From NCBI GenBank assembly GCA_963783305.1, contig CAWAMW010000017.1, positions 320,001 through 384,000 on the forward strand: DNA of 64,000 nucleotides. The letters are read 5' to 3'. This DNA comes from an uncultured Gemmatimonadales bacterium. Lineage in GTDB: Bacteria > Gemmatimonadota > Gemmatimonadetes > Longimicrobiales > RSA9. Of this stretch, positions 1 through 10,170 are shown piece after piece. Positions within the stretch are counted from its first letter, which is position 1. Each line of letters begins with the position of its first letter. Below the pieces are notes generated by a model that had not been told where the DNA came from, did not search any database, and worked only from the letters and a program-made list of their open reading frames with translations. A program made the translations under genes and the position numbers.

Positions 1-564
1 CGCGATGTGCAGGAACAGGTTGAGGAAGAAGAACGCCGCCGGCACCGGCCGGTCCCCCACGAATGTCCGACCGATCGGTTCGCTGAAGATCGGCAGCGCA
101 TCCATCAGTCGCGCTCCCTCCACCGCCAGTAGCTGCGCCTGCGTGTCCCATACCATCACGTAGCCCGTCCACCCAGACACCAGCACCACCAACAGCAGCA
201 CCAGGCCACTCACCCACGCCAGCGCTCGCGGACCCCAACTGCGACCCTGCGCGAACATCCGGAATGCATGCACCACGATCGCTATCACCGCCACGTCCGA
301 CCCGTAGCGGTGGAGCGTTCGGATCCACCGCCCCAGCCACGCCTGCTCCGTGATCCTCGCCACCGACTCGTATGGCGCCCCGATCCGGTAAAACAACAGC
401 AGGTATGCGCCCGTCAGAAGCAGCACCACCAACAGACCCGCCACGATGGCCCCGCTCGCGTACAGTGGGTTCCACCGAGACCCGTACACACGGTCCATCC
501 ACCGGTCCACCCACCGGAGCGCCCGTAGCGCCGTCCGCTGGAGCGCCGCCGCGATGCCGCTCAT
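1..564 (-). CDS. Cytochrome b N-terminal (b/b6) domain membrane protein, runs off the left edge
   Basis: Manual translation (not in ORF track): MSGIAAALQRTAL...NPLYASGAI...TGAYLLLFY...GRWIRTLHRYGSD...VVHAFRMF...GWTGYVMVWD...FLHIA; heme-ligand His spacing typical of cytochrome b. Confidence 0.85.
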   Translation of the reverse strand, partial: MSGIAAALQRTALRALRWVDRWMDRVYGSRWNPLYASGAIVAGLLVVLLLTGAYLLLFYRIGAPYESVARITEQAWLGRWIRTLHRYGSDVAVIAIVVHAFRMFAQGRSWGPRALAWVSGLVLLLVVLVSGWTGYVMVWDTQAQLLAVEGARLMDALPIFSEPIGRTFVGDRPVPAAFFFLNLFLHIA

Positions 565-706: not shown

Positions 707-1132
707 ATGCTCTCCGCCACCGCCGCCTACGCGCTCCGGGCCATGATCCACCTCGCCGCCCGCGAGGGAGAGGGTCCCGTGCGGGTGGACGATGTGGCCG
801 AGGCGCTGGGCGTGCCCAGGAACTACCTGTCGAAGGTGCTGCACGCCCTGGTGAAGGACGGGACGCTGCGATCGCTCCGGGGGCCGAATGGGGGGTTCGA
901 GCTGGCGGTCCCGTCGTCGTCGCTGACGCTGTTCGACGTGGTGCGTCCGTTCGAGGAGATGGAGTCACGGCGAATGTGCCTGCTGGGAGGCGCGTGCGAC
1001 GAGCGGAACCCGTGCGCTGTGCACGGTCGGTGGAGCGGAGTGGCGGCGGACGTCGCTTCGTTCTTCCGGGAGACGGGGCTGGACGACGTGGTGCGGGACA
1101 CGAGGCGAGTGGAGACGGTGCTGCGCGGGTGA
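707..1132 (+). CDS. Rrf2 family transcriptional regulator with Fe-S-type Cys motif
   Basis: YALRAM...YLSKVL...SLRGPNGGF...LTLFDVV; C-terminal CLLGGACDERNPCAVH (3 Cys plus His); start chosen within ORF 446..1132. Confidence 0.9.
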   Translation: MLSATAAYALRAMIHLAAREGEGPVRVDDVAEALGVPRNYLSKVLHALVKDGTLRSLRGPNGGFELAVPSSSLTLFDVVRPFEEMESRRMCLLGGACDERNPCAVHGRWSGVAADVASFFRETGLDDVVRDTRRVETVLRG

Positions 1133-1146
1133 ACACAGGAGGAGAA

Positions 1147-1308
1147 ATGGACGGAGATAGTAGGGTGCAGGAGGAAGTGCCGCTGGGCCAGCGGCTATAC
1201 GACAACTGGGTCCTGCTGTTGATCGCGGGGGTCCTGGTGGTGTCGATCACGTACGTGGGCTGGGGCATGTACGAGATTCTGACGCTGCCTCAGGCGACGC
1301 TGCCGTAA
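1147..1308 (+). CDS. Small single-TM protein, probable accessory subunit of the heme-copper oxidase
   Basis: AGGAGGAG RBS, then MDGDSRVQEEVPLGQRLYDNWVLLLIAGVLVVSITYVGWGMYEILTLPQATLP, directly before subunit II. Confidence 0.75.
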   Translation: MDGDSRVQEEVPLGQRLYDNWVLLLIAGVLVVSITYVGWGMYEILTLPQATLP

Positions 1309-1319
1309 GGAGGCGCGAA

Positions 1320-1919
1320 ATGAGATGGAGAACGGGGCTGGAGTCCCCGACGGGGGTCTGGTGGATACCGGCCCATGGCGCGGAGAAGGTCTGGTTCGGA
1401 GTGGCGTTCGCGTGGTGCATGGTGCTGTTCGCGATGATGCCGCTCTGGCACTGGAAGGGAGGCCAGAACCCGGCGGGAATCCGGGCGAAGGTGGAGCCGG
1501 CCGCGTATGCCGAGCGCGTGGAGGAATTCATCTCGGAGTACCAGGTGGGGGAAGAGAACGGGTATCCCATCGTGGAGCCGCCGGTGGGCAGCGATGTGTA
1601 CCTGCAGGCGCGGATGTGGAGCTGGACACCGATCCTGAAGCTGCGGAAGGGAGCCGACTACGTGCTGCACCTGTCGAGTCTCGACGTGAACCACGGGTTC
1701 GCGCTGTACCCGATCAACGTGAACTTCCAGGTGGTCCCGGGCTACGACTACGGCCTCGAGGTCACGCCGTCGACGGCCGGAGAGTTCGAGATCATGTGCA
1801 ACGAGTTCTGCGGCATCAACCACCACAACATGGTGGGGAAGATCATCGTGGTGGACCCGGAAGCCGAAGCGTCGGCTGTGGTCGCGGCGGGCACGGGTGG
1901 GGAGGCCAGCCATGACTAG
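1320..1919 (+). CDS. Heme-copper oxidase subunit II (CuA, single TM)
   Basis: DVNHGF...CNEFCGINHHNM CuA ligand motif; AAGGAGG RBS. Confidence 0.93.
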   Translation: MRWRTGLESPTGVWWIPAHGAEKVWFGVAFAWCMVLFAMMPLWHWKGGQNPAGIRAKVEPAAYAERVEEFISEYQVGEENGYPIVEPPVGSDVYLQARMWSWTPILKLRKGADYVLHLSSLDVNHGFALYPINVNFQVVPGYDYGLEVTPSTAGEFEIMCNEFCGINHHNMVGKIIVVDPEAEASAVVAAGTGGEASHD

Positions 1920-3489
1920 CTTCATCCATCGGGTCTGTCCCACCACCGGCCTCAAGGTGGACCGGCAGGCGAACAACCTGATCAAGGCGAACGCGGTGGC
2001 CGCCACGGTGGCGCTGCTGGTGGGTGGAGTGGCGGCGATCCTGGTGCTGCTCACGCGCTGGCAGGCGGTGCACCTGCTGGGCGCGGCGATGTTCTACCGG
2101 GTCCTGACGATCCACGGGATGAACATGCTCATCTTCTTCATCCTGTTCTTCGAGATGGCGATCCTGTACTTCGCCGGGCCGGTGCTGCTGAACAGTCGGC
2201 TCCCGGCCCCGAAGGTGGGGTGGTCGGCGTTCGCGCTCATGGTGGTGGGCGCGCTGCTGGTGGAGTGGACGATGTTCACCGGTCGCGCGGACGTGCTGTT
2301 CACGTCATACGTGCCACTCCGCGCGCACCCGGCCTTCTATGGTGGCATCATCCTCTTCGCAGTGGGCGCTCTGATCGTGGTGGGGCACTTCTTCGCGTCG
2401 CTGGTGGTGGCGAAGCGGGAGAAGTCGTACGAGGGGTCGGTCCCGCTGGTCACGTTCGGCGGGATTACGGCGGCGATCATCGCCGTGATCACGCTGGCGC
2501 AGGGCGCGGCCATCTACATCCCGACGTTCTTCTGGTCGTTGGGGATCGGGGAGGTGGACCCGCAGGTATACCGGATGGTGTGGTGGGGGCTGGGGCACAG
2601 TTCGCAGCAGATCAATGTGGCCGCCATGGTCTCGGTGTGGTACCTGCTGGGCGGGCTCACGGTCGGGGCCGTGGTGCTGAACGAGAAGATCAGCCGCACC
2701 GCCTTCGTCCTGTACGTCCTGTTCATTTCCATGGCCGCCGCGCACCACCTGCTGGTGGACCCGGGGCTCGGGCCGGCATGGAAGATCGTCAACACCAGCT
2801 ACTTCATGTACATGGCGGTGCTGGCCAGCATGCTCCACGGCTTCACGGTACCGGCGGGAATCGAAGTGGGCCAGCGCCTGCGGGGGTACACGAAGGGCAC
2901 ATTCGAATGGCTGCGGCGCGCCCCGTGGAGCGACCCGGGGTTCAGCTCACTGGCGTTCTCCGTGGTGGTGTTCGGCTTCGTGGGCGGGATCACCGGCGTC
3001 ACGTTCGGGACCGAGCAGATCAACATCATCGCGCACAACACGCTCCGCATACCCGGCCACTTCCACGCCACCGTTGTGAGCGGGACGGCCATGGCGTTCA
3101 TGGGGCTCACCTACTACGTCATCCCGCTGATCTTCAGGAAGAAGGTGGCGTTCTGGCCGCTGGCGAAGATCCAGCCCTACCTGTTCGCCGGCGGGATGCT
3201 CGTGTTCAGCATGGCCATGACCTTCGCCGGCACGTTCGCGGTCCCGCGGAGGCACTGGGACATCACGTTCCAGAACGCGCCGTTCGACCTCCAGTTCAGC
3301 CCGACCGTGGACCTGCTGCTCGGCATCATGGCCATCGGCGGCCTGGTGGCAGCGGTGGGCGGAGGCATCTACATCCTGGTCACAGTCTGGTCGGTATTTT
3401 TCGGAGAACCCATTGAAGAAGGAGATGACGTCTATGTCGATGCACGGACTCCCACAGGGGATAGTGAACCCGCCCCGGCCGTTCACTGA
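1912..3489 (+). CDS. Heme-copper oxidase superfamily subunit I, eNOR-like nitric oxide reductase
   Basis: Six His ligands (TIHG, GHSSQQ, AHHLL, GHFHA); helix VI reads H-S-S-Q-Q with Gln at the Tyr cross-link position. Confidence 0.85.
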   Translation: MTSFIHRVCPTTGLKVDRQANNLIKANAVAATVALLVGGVAAILVLLTRWQAVHLLGAAMFYRVLTIHGMNMLIFFILFFEMAILYFAGPVLLNSRLPAPKVGWSAFALMVVGALLVEWTMFTGRADVLFTSYVPLRAHPAFYGGIILFAVGALIVVGHFFASLVVAKREKSYEGSVPLVTFGGITAAIIAVITLAQGAAIYIPTFFWSLGIGEVDPQVYRMVWWGLGHSSQQINVAAMVSVWYLLGGLTVGAVVLNEKISRTAFVLYVLFISMAAAHHLLVDPGLGPAWKIVNTSYFMYMAVLASMLHGFTVPAGIEVGQRLRGYTKGTFEWLRRAPWSDPGFSSLAFSVVVFGFVGGITGVTFGTEQINIIAHNTLRIPGHFHATVVSGTAMAFMGLTYYVIPLIFRKKVAFWPLAKIQPYLFAGGMLVFSMAMTFAGTFAVPRRHWDITFQNAPFDLQFSPTVDLLLGIMAIGGLVAAVGGGIYILVTVWSVFFGEPIEEGDDVYVDARTPTGDSEPAPAVH

Positions 3490-3637
3490 GGCCGACGAGG
3501 CGGCGGTGCTCGAGCGGCACGGGAAAATGGGGCCTACACCCGGGACGGTGATCCTGGTGGCCATCTTCCTCGTTGCCTTCGCAACCTACTACTTCACGAA
3601 CTGGAAGCTGCTGTCGTTCCTGTGGCAGATCGGCTGA
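3434..3637 (+). CDS. Small single-TM protein overlapping the subunit I end (separate subunit or frameshifted C-terminus)
   Basis: ORF 3413..3637 with TM PGTVILVAIFLVAFATYYFTNW; AAGGAG lies 9 nt before ATG 3434. Confidence 0.6.
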   Translation: MSMHGLPQGIVNPPRPFTEADEAAVLERHGKMGPTPGTVILVAIFLVAFATYYFTNWKLLSFLWQIG

Positions 3638-4539
3638 TCCGGACCCGGCTGACCCGCAGGCACGGCCTCCTGATCTCGGCACTGGCCGCCATTGCGGGCA
3701 TAACTGCGGGGTGGTGGGCGCTGGCACTCTGGCCGGCGCCCGCCGACGCCCCCGCCTGGCTGGGTCGAACCCGCGCCGTCTGCTTCGGAGTGGGCGACTC
3801 CGGGCTTCCGGACGCCGCCGGCTGGGCCGTCCTGATCGGGCAGCCCGCCAGCATGCTGGCGGTGCTCCTCTTCGGCTGGTGGCGAACCACGACCGAAGCG
3901 CTGCGCATCGTCGGCCGATCCCGGGCCGGCCGTGCCGCCCTCGCCAGCGCCACTCTGCTCCTGGCCACGGGGGCCACGGCCGCATCCGTGCGCGTGGCCG
4001 GGGCGGCGGGAGGGGGGCGCTCCACGCTCGATGCGCCGACGCGCTCCGCGGCCGAGCTGCCACGCCTCCACCTGGCTGCGCCGGCGCTCGACCTCGTGGA
4101 CCAGCACGGTGAGCCGTTCACCCTCGAACGGCTCCGGGGGGAGCCCGCCCTCGTTACATTCGCCTTCGCTCACTGTGAGACGGTTTGCCCCGTGCTGGTT
4201 CGGGAGGTGCGGCGTGCGCGGCAACTCGCCCTGGATCGCGGCCTCGCGCCACCCGCCGTCGTGGTGGTCACGGTCGACCCGTGGCGCGACACGCCGCCGC
4301 GGCTTCCACACATCGCCAAGGGTTGGGAGCTGGCGGAAGACGAGTGGGTGCTCAGCGCCCAGCCGGACGCAGTACGGGCGACCCTCGAACGGTGGAATGT
4401 TCCCACCACGAGGGACGCCCGTACCGGAGAAATCACGCATCCGGCCATCGTCTATGTTCTGGACCGGGAAGGGCGGGTCGCGTTCGCCACCACCGGGGGC
4501 GGCGAGCACGCCCTCGCCCTCCTCGCGCGGATCAACTAG
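3622..4539 (+). CDS. SCO1/SenC copper chaperone with N-terminal membrane region
   Basis: FAHCETVCP (CxxxC) plus ITHPAIVYVLD His; follows the CuA operon. Confidence 0.88.
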   Translation: MADRLIRTRLTRRHGLLISALAAIAGITAGWWALALWPAPADAPAWLGRTRAVCFGVGDSGLPDAAGWAVLIGQPASMLAVLLFGWWRTTTEALRIVGRSRAGRAALASATLLLATGATAASVRVAGAAGGGRSTLDAPTRSAAELPRLHLAAPALDLVDQHGEPFTLERLRGEPALVTFAFAHCETVCPVLVREVRRARQLALDRGLAPPAVVVVTVDPWRDTPPRLPHIAKGWELAEDEWVLSAQPDAVRATLERWNVPTTRDARTGEITHPAIVYVLDREGRVAFATTGGGEHALALLARIN

Positions 4540-6871: not shown

Positions 6872-9109
6872 TCAGGCCACGAGCCTCCACACCTGCGCGA
6901 CCATGAAGGTGACGACGATCCCCATGACCAGCGGCATGAGCGCCGCGACGGTCGTCCATTTCACGCTCCCCGTCTCCTTGTAGATCGTGTAGATCGTGGT
7001 GGAGCAGGGGTTGTGGAGCAGGCTGAAGAGCATCAGCGACACGCCGGTCAGCAGCGTCCAGCCGCCCGCCTGAAGGACCTGCGCCATGGCCATGGTGCTG
7101 TCCAGCTCGAACAGGACTCCGGCGCCCTCCCCCAGGGCCAACCCGGCGCTGAGGACGGTGAGCATGAGGATCGTGGGGATGACGATCTCGTTGGCGGGGA
7201 TCGCCACCACGTAGGCCAGGAGGATCACGCCGTTCATGCCCAGGAGCACGCCCATCGGGTTCAGCCAGTCGATGAGGTATTCGGCGACGCTCGCATCGCC
7301 GATAACGACGTTGGCCGACAGCCAGATCACCCCCCCGGCCGGCACCGCGAACATGACGGCCCTCCAGAGCACGATGAGGGTGCGGTCGACCACGGACGTG
7401 TAGAGGGTCTGGAGCACGCGCGGCGGGCGGTACGGCGGTAGCTCCAGACTGAAGGTGGTCGCTTCACCGCGCAGGACCGTACTCGACAGCATCCAGGATG
7501 CGAGAAACATGAAGAGGATGCCGAGCACCGCGATCCCCACGACGGCCGAGGCGGCCACCAGACCGGCGAGGTGCGGCGGCGCGAGCGCTCCGATGAAAAT
7601 AGTGGCGATGAGGATCTGCGTCGGCCACCGCCCGTTGCAGAGTGAGAAATTGTTCGTGATGATGGCGATCAACCGCTCCCGCGGGCTGTCGATGATGCGC
7701 GTCGCCACCACGCCGGCCGCGTTGCAACCGAACCCCATGGCCATGGTCAGCGCCTGTTTCCCGTGGGCTCCGACCCGCTGGAACATGGAATCCATGTTGA
7801 ACGCGACACGGGGCAGGTACCCGAAGTCCTCCAGCAGTGTGAACAGCGGGAAGAAGATGGCCATGGGGGGCAGCATGACGGCCACGACCCACGCCGTCGC
7901 CAGGTAGACCCCGTCGAAGAGGAACCCGCTCAGCCACCAGGGCATGCCGATGGCATTCCCCGCCGCGGTGAGCAGGCTGTGGCCATGGTCGACGAGCAGC
8001 GTCCCCAGCATCTGCGACGGCACGTTCGCGCCCGCGATGGTGATCCAGAAGACCGCGGCGAGGACCCCGAGCATGATGGGGAGGCCGAGCCAGCGGCTGG
8101 TGAGGAGCTGGTCGAGCTTGCGGTCGAAGCGCTGACCGATCGCCCGGAGCCCCCGCTCCTGCGATTCGTCCGCGATCCGCTGCGCGGCGCCGTACAGCCG
8201 CTCCATGAGTGCGTCGTGGAAGTCCGGCCGGAGGTTCCAGCGCAGCCGGGACGCGGTCTCCAGGACCTCGTTGATAGCCTCCGGCTCCGGCTCGGGCGGA
8301 TCCCCGGTGAGCTGGGCGACGCCCGTGGCGACGACCCCTTCCTCCAGAAACCCGAGCTCGCCTTCCCGCACCGCTTCCTCCACGGCGCCATCGCCATTCA
8401 ACAGACGGAGCGCGACCCAGCGCGGGTTCGCGACCCCCGGGTACGCGCGCTCGATGGCCGGCATGAGCTCACCTACCGCCCCCTCCACCTCCGGCGCGTG
8501 GGCCTCGAGACGGTACGGCGTCGTGGGCCGCTCGCCCATGGCCACCGCCTGCACCGTGTCGAGCAGCAGGTTCACCCCTTCCCCGCTCCGGGCCACCGTG
8601 GCGACGACGGGTACTCCGAGCGTCCGTTCCAGCCGCTCCACATCGATAGAAACGCCATGACGACGCGCCTCGTCCACCAGGTTCAGGCAGACCACCACCC
8701 GATCCGTGATCTCCAGCACCTGCAGGACCAGGTTCAGGTTCCGCTCCAGCCGGCTCGCGTCCACCACTACCACCGTGACGTCGGGGCGCCCGAAGACCAG
8801 GAAGTCCCGGGCGACCTCCTCGTCGGTGCTGCCCGCCTGCAGCGAGTACGTCCCCGGCAGGTCCACCACCTTCACCCGCTGCCCCCGGTGCGCGAACGCG
8901 CCCTCGGCGCGGACTACGGTCTTGCCCGGCCAGTTCCCCGTGTGCTGCCGCAGCCCCGTCAGCGCGTTGAAAACCGTGCTCTTCCCCACGTTCGGGTTGC
9001 CGGCCAGCGCCACCAGGTAGTCCCACCGGTCCGGGCTCAGACCCAGCCGCACCAGGTTCTGCTGCCGGTGCTCGCTCGACGACCGCCGCTCCCTCGTGCG
9101 CGTCGCCAT
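6872..9109 (-). CDS. feoB: Ferrous iron transporter B
   Basis: [37 protein letters not shown] overlap with the upstream gene. Confidence 0.95.
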
Positions 9110-10170
9110 CAGCCCGCCCTCTCCGACGGCTGCTCCTCGACTTCGATCCACGACGCCTGCTCACGACGCAGCGCGATCAGCGCGCCCCGGATCCGGTACG
9201 CCACCGGGTCGCCCGCCGCGCTCACCAGCTCCGCCACCACCGTCGTGCCGGGCACCACGCCCAGGTCCAGCAGACGACGGCGCTGCGGACCCTGGCACGC
9301 CGGCGCGATCCCCACCACCCGCACCGGCTCGCCCCGCGCGGCGTCGGCCAGCGTGCGCACCCTGCCCATCGCCGCCTCACCCTCCGGCAGCCGCTCCACG
9401 GTGACATTGGCCGCGTCCACGGGCCTGAGCACGTGCTCCGCGCCCCGCACCTGGATCCGCACCCGGCCCGCGTCGCCCGCGCCCCGCTCCCGGCGCTCCA
9501 CGACCTCGAGCGTCTGACCCGGCGCCAGCCCCATCTCCAGCAGACGATCGAACACCTCGCGCGGCTCGTCCTCCAGGTGCCGCACCACCGCGCTCTCCCC
9601 CGCCCCCAGCGCGCCCAACGTGGTCCCCACACGGTCGGGGATCTCGCCGCCCGCCGTGGGGATCGGGTCGCCGTGCGGGTCGTAGCGGGGATCACCGAGC
9701 CGCGACGCCAGCGCCTCCGCCTCCGCCGCGCTCAACTGGTGCTCCACCCGCTCCGCCTTCGTATGCCACTCCGCCGCCGGCACCCCCGTGCGGTCCGCCA
9801 GGTACCGCTCCCACAGACGATGCGTGCGCAGGATCCGCAGCGCGTACTCACGACCCGCCTCCGTCAGCCCGTAGCCGTCTCCGTTCGCCTCCGCCAGCCC
9901 CTGGTCCGTCAGCCGCGTCAGGACGTCCGATGCCGCGCCGCGCGACGTCTCCAGCCGCCCCGCCAGCCGCTCCAGCGAGCACAGCCGGCCGGACCGCTCG
10001 CTGTCCAGCAGGTGCTTCAGCGCGTCCTCCAGACGCACCCGCTCGGCCTCCTTGCGGAGGCGATCCATGCGCGCGAGCAGACCGGCCCGCGGCCAGAACG
10101 CGGCGGCCGCGGCGAGGGCGATTGCGACGGCGAGCAGCGCCATCGGGCTGAAGAGGGACTCGGGTATCAT
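9109..10170 (-). CDS. DtxR/MntR family metal-dependent regulator with N-terminal TM segment and two FeoA domains
   Basis: [22 protein letters not shown]; two FeoA-like repeats ([20 protein letters not shown]...[10 protein letters not shown]). Confidence 0.9.

Follow-up and report, generated by a model that had tools for sequence, protein, structure and literature searches.

The 64,000-nucleotide window analyzed here (positions 320,001 to 384,000 of contig CAWAMW010000017.1 of an uncultured Gemmatimonadales bacterium) carries, at positions 1147-4539, an operon for a ba3-derived heme-copper enzyme that has a CuA subunit and a glutamine at the site of the cross-link tyrosine, and that likely reduces two molecules of nitric oxide (NO) to nitrous oxide (N2O) rather than reducing oxygen (O2). 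We place the probability of this reading at about 90%; what the analysis shows directly is the residues, the fold, the clade placement, the order of the genes and the content of the genome. Subunit I was supported as an eNOR by every sequence test that was run. The locus is an ordinary member of a known and common family, reported from 547 GTDB genomes (Table 1 of Murali et al. 2024, PMC11214002; preprint version 10.1101/2021.10.15.464467); both the diagnostic glutamine and the presence of the family in the order have been published, with Longimicrobiales eNOR catalogued in Dataset S8 of that study. The same glutamine is taken as the eNOR diagnostic in PMC8756737, and eNOR has been used in the surveys PMC12569097 and PMC13592168, the latter reporting enor as the commonest nor type in its estuarine data.

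With residues counted from the ATG at 1912, helix VI of subunit I reads WWGLGHSSQQIN and is encoded at 2581-2616, with His229 at codon 2596-2598 and Gln233 at codon 2608-2610. The phmmer alignment to Thermus ba3 matched His229 to the helix VI histidine and Gln233 to the cross-link tyrosine (Tyr237 in the numbering of Dataset S1). The motif contains two glutamines, and it is the second that replaces the tyrosine; four rows of a sister set read HxxQY, with glutamine at +3 and the tyrosine kept at +4. The three active-site histidines and the heme histidine ligands are all kept, and H68, H229, H278, H279, H383, H385 and Q233 were invariant in 80/80 loci and 120/120 homologues, although these are overlapping sets of close kin, 75-91% identical to the query. 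The first-pass annotation of this DNA, made from the letters alone, had described a glutamine at the tyrosine site with all histidine ligands intact, and this description held. Due to its invariance in both sets, the motif is not a sequencing error.

The predicted proton channel consists of Y244, S306 and H309 of subunit I together with Glu22 of subunit II. The three subunit I residues are offset by +11, +73 and +76 from Q233, the same spacing as in the Q245, Y256, S318 and H321 series of Dataset S1. The structure model of subunit I had a predicted local distance difference test score (pLDDT) of 87.5, and its best fold matches were 7deg_A (template modelling (TM) score 0.87) and Thermus thermophilus ba3 (TM 0.84); searches of the PDB by sequence and by fold matched no eNOR structure. 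The two matched enzymes share the fold, the CuA subunit and a K-like channel with the query but keep the cross-link tyrosine, and their identity to the query in the fold alignment is about 25-27%.

In Dataset S1 of Murali et al., eNOR is defined by Q245 with the channel residues Y256, S318, H321 and E(II)21, while bNOR and sNOR carry asparagine at the tyrosine site (N-245 and N-243, respectively) and nNOR carries glutamate; gNOR is described in the same study as having aspartate in place of one histidine. These four families are likewise derived from the B family with loss of the tyrosine, but their site residues differ from those of the query and none of them fits. A B-family O2 reductase was rejected by Gln233, where the cross-link tyrosine (His+4) would be expected; bNOR and sNOR, as well as nNOR, cNOR and qNOR, were rejected by the same residue, which is neither asparagine nor glutamate. 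The gNOR type, with aspartate for one active-site histidine and no CuA, was rejected by the retention of all histidine and CuA ligands.

A tree of 52 rows, obtained by a quick IQ-TREE search with support from the Shimodaira-Hasegawa-like approximate likelihood ratio test (SH-aLRT) only, sampled the 80 loci (8 used), 64 plasmid records (13 used) and 150 representatives (26 used) by length and spread. The query fell in a 14-row clade with an SH-aLRT of 100, in which every row reads HxxQQ, and the B-type oxidase of the same genome fell in a separate clade. The clade includes the J028, Bin94, SZUA-318 and Thermomicrobium roseum proteins, all from genomes that Dataset S8 marks ENOR=1. The Rhodothermus marinus sequence was not among the rows, and the match to eNOR was made through the published residues and the listed genomes. 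Altogether, the residues, the channel spacing and the HxxQQ clade agreed with the eNOR type, rather than O2 reductase, that had been proposed from sequence. The suspicion that such genes are mislabelled was also borne out, as close homologues are named cytochrome c oxidase or cbb3 subunit I in databases. Near the clade, four rows (P0126, P0129, P0132 and P0146) combine HxxQY in helix VI with an eNOR-like SxxH in helix VIII; judged by these motifs, they look like tyrosine-retaining relatives resembling the step before the tyrosine-to-glutamine change.

The operon span comprises four open reading frames (ORFs) plus a small overlapping ORF. The features of the locus, in window coordinates, are as follows.

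1-564, minus strand: 5' part of a gene for a cytochrome b - 2x[4Fe-4S] - MvhD/FlpD fusion, 537 aa in total (Pfam)
658-677, no strand: candidate Rrf2 operator palindrome in the divergent promoter region (consensus match)
707-1132, plus strand: Rrf2-family regulator (TIGR00738)
1147-1308, plus strand: 53-aa protein with a single hydrophobic stretch, probable small subunit, kept in 76/80 loci
1320-1919, plus strand: subunit II, bearing the CuA site and Glu22 at the channel entry (COX2 above cut-off)
1912-3489, plus strand: eNOR subunit I, 525 aa, ba3-like fold (residues, clade, model)
3434-3637, plus strand: 67-aa overlapping ORF for a hydrophobic segment that most relatives carry at the C-terminal end of subunit I itself
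3622-4539, plus strand: copper chaperone SCO1/SenC, extended by a hydrophobic N-terminal stretch; start codon uncertain (Pfam SCO1-SenC)

Subunit II, as first claimed, carries CuA: the ligands H125, C160, C164, H168 and M171 were found in 82/82 sequences and E162 in 81/82. Its E22, also present in 81/82, corresponds to E(II)21 of Dataset S1. The SCO chaperone noted in the operon was confirmed by an SCO1-SenC domain match of 77.7 bits (cut-off 22.8); its C185 and C189 are kept in 73/74 sequences and H273 in 72/74, and the gene is present in 75/80 loci. The Pfam search of the 53-aa protein gave no family above cut-off.

The 67-aa ORF had no Pfam match, and presumably resembles subunit IIa of ba3. 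Its segment is fused to subunit I in 72/80 loci and in 41/120 homologues, and the other 79 homologues, including four of the six best, have the short form of subunit I. The ATG of the 67-aa ORF is preceded by a GGAG, and a separate ORF of this type was recovered in 4/7 split loci examined. Since many of the nearest homologues have this short form, the split that puts the last helix of subunit I on a separate overlapping gene is, judging from these sequences, real. Two A-type subunit I genes elsewhere in the assembly look frameshifted (C7:18643-19978 and C17:536396-538306), by assembly error or decay, and could suggest that the query is itself a decayed oxidase or that its motif and split last helix are errors of assembly. 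The constancy of the motif across the 80 loci and the frequency of the short subunit I among the homologues leave this suggestion with hardly any credibility; from the sequence comparisons, it appears already refuted by conservation.

The host genome (G000), which is 96% complete and has its close relatives in Longimicrobiales/Gemmatimonadota, contains three A-type oxidase genes with HPxxY and one B-type gene with HAIVY, so that O2 reduction is already covered. Two CtaA matches and one CtaB, the supply genes for heme A, are found elsewhere in the genome. A check for nitrite and N2O reductases, which had been proposed along with that for heme a synthase, identified NirK (352 bits, cut-off 296). 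The search for nosZ found no gene in this genome, while the same model matched 9 of the 41 genomes searched; an L-NosZ model stayed far under its cut-off. The nosZ negative does not rest on PF18764, which matched nothing, controls included. Because nosZ was not found, N2O is the likely end product in the host. The NrfA search gave only a 25-bit fragment and the NirS search no real match. A NapA-like gene (712 bits, under the cut-off of 904) was located at C17:490000-496800 (L117), flanked by genes for multiheme cytochromes and a DsrP/NrfD-type membrane protein.

The same contig also carries, about 85 kb from the eNOR genes, a complete norCB for a cNOR (C17:405682-407887; L007:648-2853), with a two-heme NorC and the NorB motif HLWVEG. 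The claim that the organism has an overlooked NO-reducing step was therefore not supported: NO reduction is not hidden in this organism, since norCB would lead to the step being called anyway. In a survey of 251 genomes of the phylum, in which G183 was counted only in the denominators, eNOR was found in 59, this cNOR/NorB type in 17 and both in three. Among the 59 eNOR genomes, 12 had NirK above cut-off and four had NirS.

The regulator at the head of the operon matched TIGR00738 with 117.8 bits (cut-off 73.3) and stayed under the IscR and NsrR cut-offs; C91, C97, C103 and H106 were invariant in 63/63 proteins, and the gene holds this position in 63/80 loci. The palindrome between the divergent arms has the form TTATCAT-N6-ATGAyAA. 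Copies with three or fewer mismatches to the consensus were found in 38/59 intergenic regions with Rrf2 and in 8/16 without it (shuffled means 0.08 and 0.02), with the consensus derived from the same intergenic regions that were scored. These observations suggested that positions 658-677 are likely an Rrf2 operator, which we list as a candidate. A matrix built from the palindrome gave nine matches in the genome, the fifth of which, a weaker copy, is upstream of an Rrf2-nirK pair; there, an Rrf2 paralogue (44% identical) comes before nirK (C2:771133-772792; L119:7134-8793), and a gene with an FGE-sulfatase domain follows it. The third-best match, C6:120473 (L121:3474-5984), precedes genes for a membrane protein with no Pfam match at the threshold used and for a DUF2249 protein, which by position may possibly belong to the same regulon. 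Three further flanking regions of palindrome matches contained no N-oxide gene. A separate promoter scan gave one site against 0.6 expected, which was not significant, and a literature search joining eNOR, Rrf2 and nitric oxide reductase found nothing.

Several observations weigh against the assignment and the role drawn from it. The tree was quick, carried no bootstrap and holds no identified sNOR, bNOR, gNOR or nNOR row. The function would rest on a single characterized family member, compared through published residues rather than sequence. In addition, Tyr297 in helix VIII is specific to the clade (14/14 rows, against 0/38 others), which, along with the ba3 fold, CuA and SCO, could be expected of a high-affinity O2 reductase in which, as in the C family, a different helix supplies the tyrosine (such as Tyr297 or Tyr268). 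C-family enzymes carry the cross-link tyrosine six residues before the HH pair, but that position is Ile272 here. Tyr268 was also found in 10/38 rows outside the clade, most of which retain the helix VI tyrosine. Furthermore, the R. marinus eNOR is reported to reduce NO and not O2, and its authors describe no migrated tyrosine in their eNOR models (PMC11214002). We consider such an O2 reductase highly improbable.

Further points against concern the physiological role of an NO-reducing eNOR. The top palindrome match (C15:359298) lies beside no recognizable N-oxide gene, and no palindrome site was found at norCB. The link between eNOR and denitrification is loose, since NirK above cut-off and NirS are both missing from 43 of the 59 eNOR genomes, and plain removal of NO would not require eNOR in a genome that already encodes a cNOR. 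It is possible, though we would not favor it, that the enzyme performs the same NO chemistry for another purpose, mainly scavenging NO that is external or derived from stress, with an Rrf2 protein as sensor, and leaving the NO made by NirK to the cNOR; this would compete with a respiratory role and not with the eNOR assignment. The 43 eNOR genomes just mentioned, the frequency of the Rrf2 gene at these loci and the host cNOR are all consistent with scavenging. Speaking for respiration, nitrite reductases were commoner in eNOR genomes (16/59) than in the rest (15/192), although kin are not independent; many genomes hold NirK-like matches under cut-off that were left unclassified; and the proton-channel residues are retained.

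Divergent from the operon, the cytochrome b fusion gene extends 1,050 bases past the left edge of the window (C17:318951-320564) and is followed by a conserved gene for a 183-aa protein. The first-pass annotation missed this pair, and likewise the Rrf2 gene and the separately encoded C-terminal helix. The 537-aa product matched Pfam Cytochrome_B, Fer4 and FlpD above cut-off; its H85, H99, H186 and H200 and eight Fer4 cysteines were invariant in 73/73 sequences, and C55, H69, M70 and C76 were invariant in the 183-aa protein. The divergent pair was present in 50/50 loci with full flanks, and its two genes in 76 and 70, respectively, of all 80 loci. Within the phylum, the cytochrome b gene was found in 58/59 eNOR genomes, the exceptions being a divergent eNOR (G214) and a C-terminal-only match (G153). 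This co-occurrence shows linkage and not mechanism, because related genomes are not independent samples and neighbouring genes move together.

The cytochrome b/Fe-S protein would most likely deliver electrons to the enzyme or to its metal assembly. Cytochrome b and Fe-S genes in an eNOR operon have been noted before, in the Ferrigenium preprint (10.64898/2026.01.22.701106), whereas a literature search joining eNOR, cytochrome b and MvhD gave nothing related by title and abstract. The near-constant co-occurrence, the fixed divergent layout and the presence of the same gene in an alphaproteobacterial (Defluviimonas) eNOR operon might be read as a self-contained eNOR module, in which a dedicated membrane protein, the cytochrome b/2x[4Fe-4S]/MvhD fusion, passes electrons from a cytoplasmic low-potential donor or quinol by way of the 183-aa Cys/His/Met protein to CuA, bypassing bc1 and cytochrome c. 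Such an energy-conserving NO-reducing loop, governed by an Rrf2 operator of its own, would be present in roughly one quarter of Gemmatimonadota. We regard this reading as unlikely. A maturation role is as plausible, and no copy of the cytochrome b gene lies within 7 kb of eNOR in T. roseum or on the Thermus plasmid, nor was one found in G214.

For the enzyme itself, the family suggests that electrons would enter at CuA and move to the low-spin heme and then to the heme/metal centre, where 2 NO would be converted to N2O and water without a tyrosine radical. The protons may be taken up from the cytoplasmic side along the K-like channel, by way of Glu22 of subunit II, His309, Ser306 and Tyr244, and with such an uptake energy would be conserved. 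SCO would load copper, and CtaB and CtaA would supply heme A, a requirement that would imply micro-oxic use. The NO source would be the NirK of the genome, with N2O then released, and Rrf2 may control both divergent arms from the palindrome.

Compared with the eNOR described for R. marinus DSM 4252 (PMC11214002), the enzyme has the same glutamine, three metal-site histidines, Tyr/Ser/His channel spacing, subunit II glutamate and CuA subunit. The locus differs in that ctaA and ctaB lie outside the operon, in the separate overlapping gene for the last helix, in the divergent cytochrome b/Fe-S pair and Rrf2, and in having a cNOR in the same genome, as in 3/59 eNOR genomes. The low-spin heme ligands are His-His, in contrast to a His-Lys variant encoded on a Thermus thermophilus plasmid (L103; NZ_AP024273.1 19327-21009), where lysine replaces the histidine (HFK); that eNOR is annotated as an oxidase and adjoins an Rrf2 gene and a multicopper gene. 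The operon described for Ferrigenium straubiae likewise clusters eNOR II, eNOR I, sco1 and a cytochrome b plus Fe-S gene, and additionally contains a heme o synthase as well as another cytochrome b gene, this one carrying FAD/NADH domains; the available text of the preprint does not name an MvhD domain, and the likeness is one of description, not sequence.

Other genes in the surroundings included FeoB-like and DtxR/FeoA-like genes 2.3 kb downstream of the operon (6872-10170, minus strand), named by eye from their translations. To the left of the window, behind the cytochrome b pair, are genes for two small proteins of the membrane, 151 and 146 aa long, that match Pfam COX1 weakly (L001:12462-13393, minus strand). 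These adjoin eNOR in only 3/80 loci, and one is also found near the Thermus plasmid eNOR.

These results correct the annotation of a gene that is usually named cytochrome c oxidase and that belongs with the NO reductases. With a NapA-like gene, NirK, both eNOR and cNOR, and nosZ not found, the host is likely to produce N2O. The almost invariably present cytochrome b/Fe-S partner provides a testable lead on the electron or metal supply of eNOR, and is the only part of the locus that merits follow-up.

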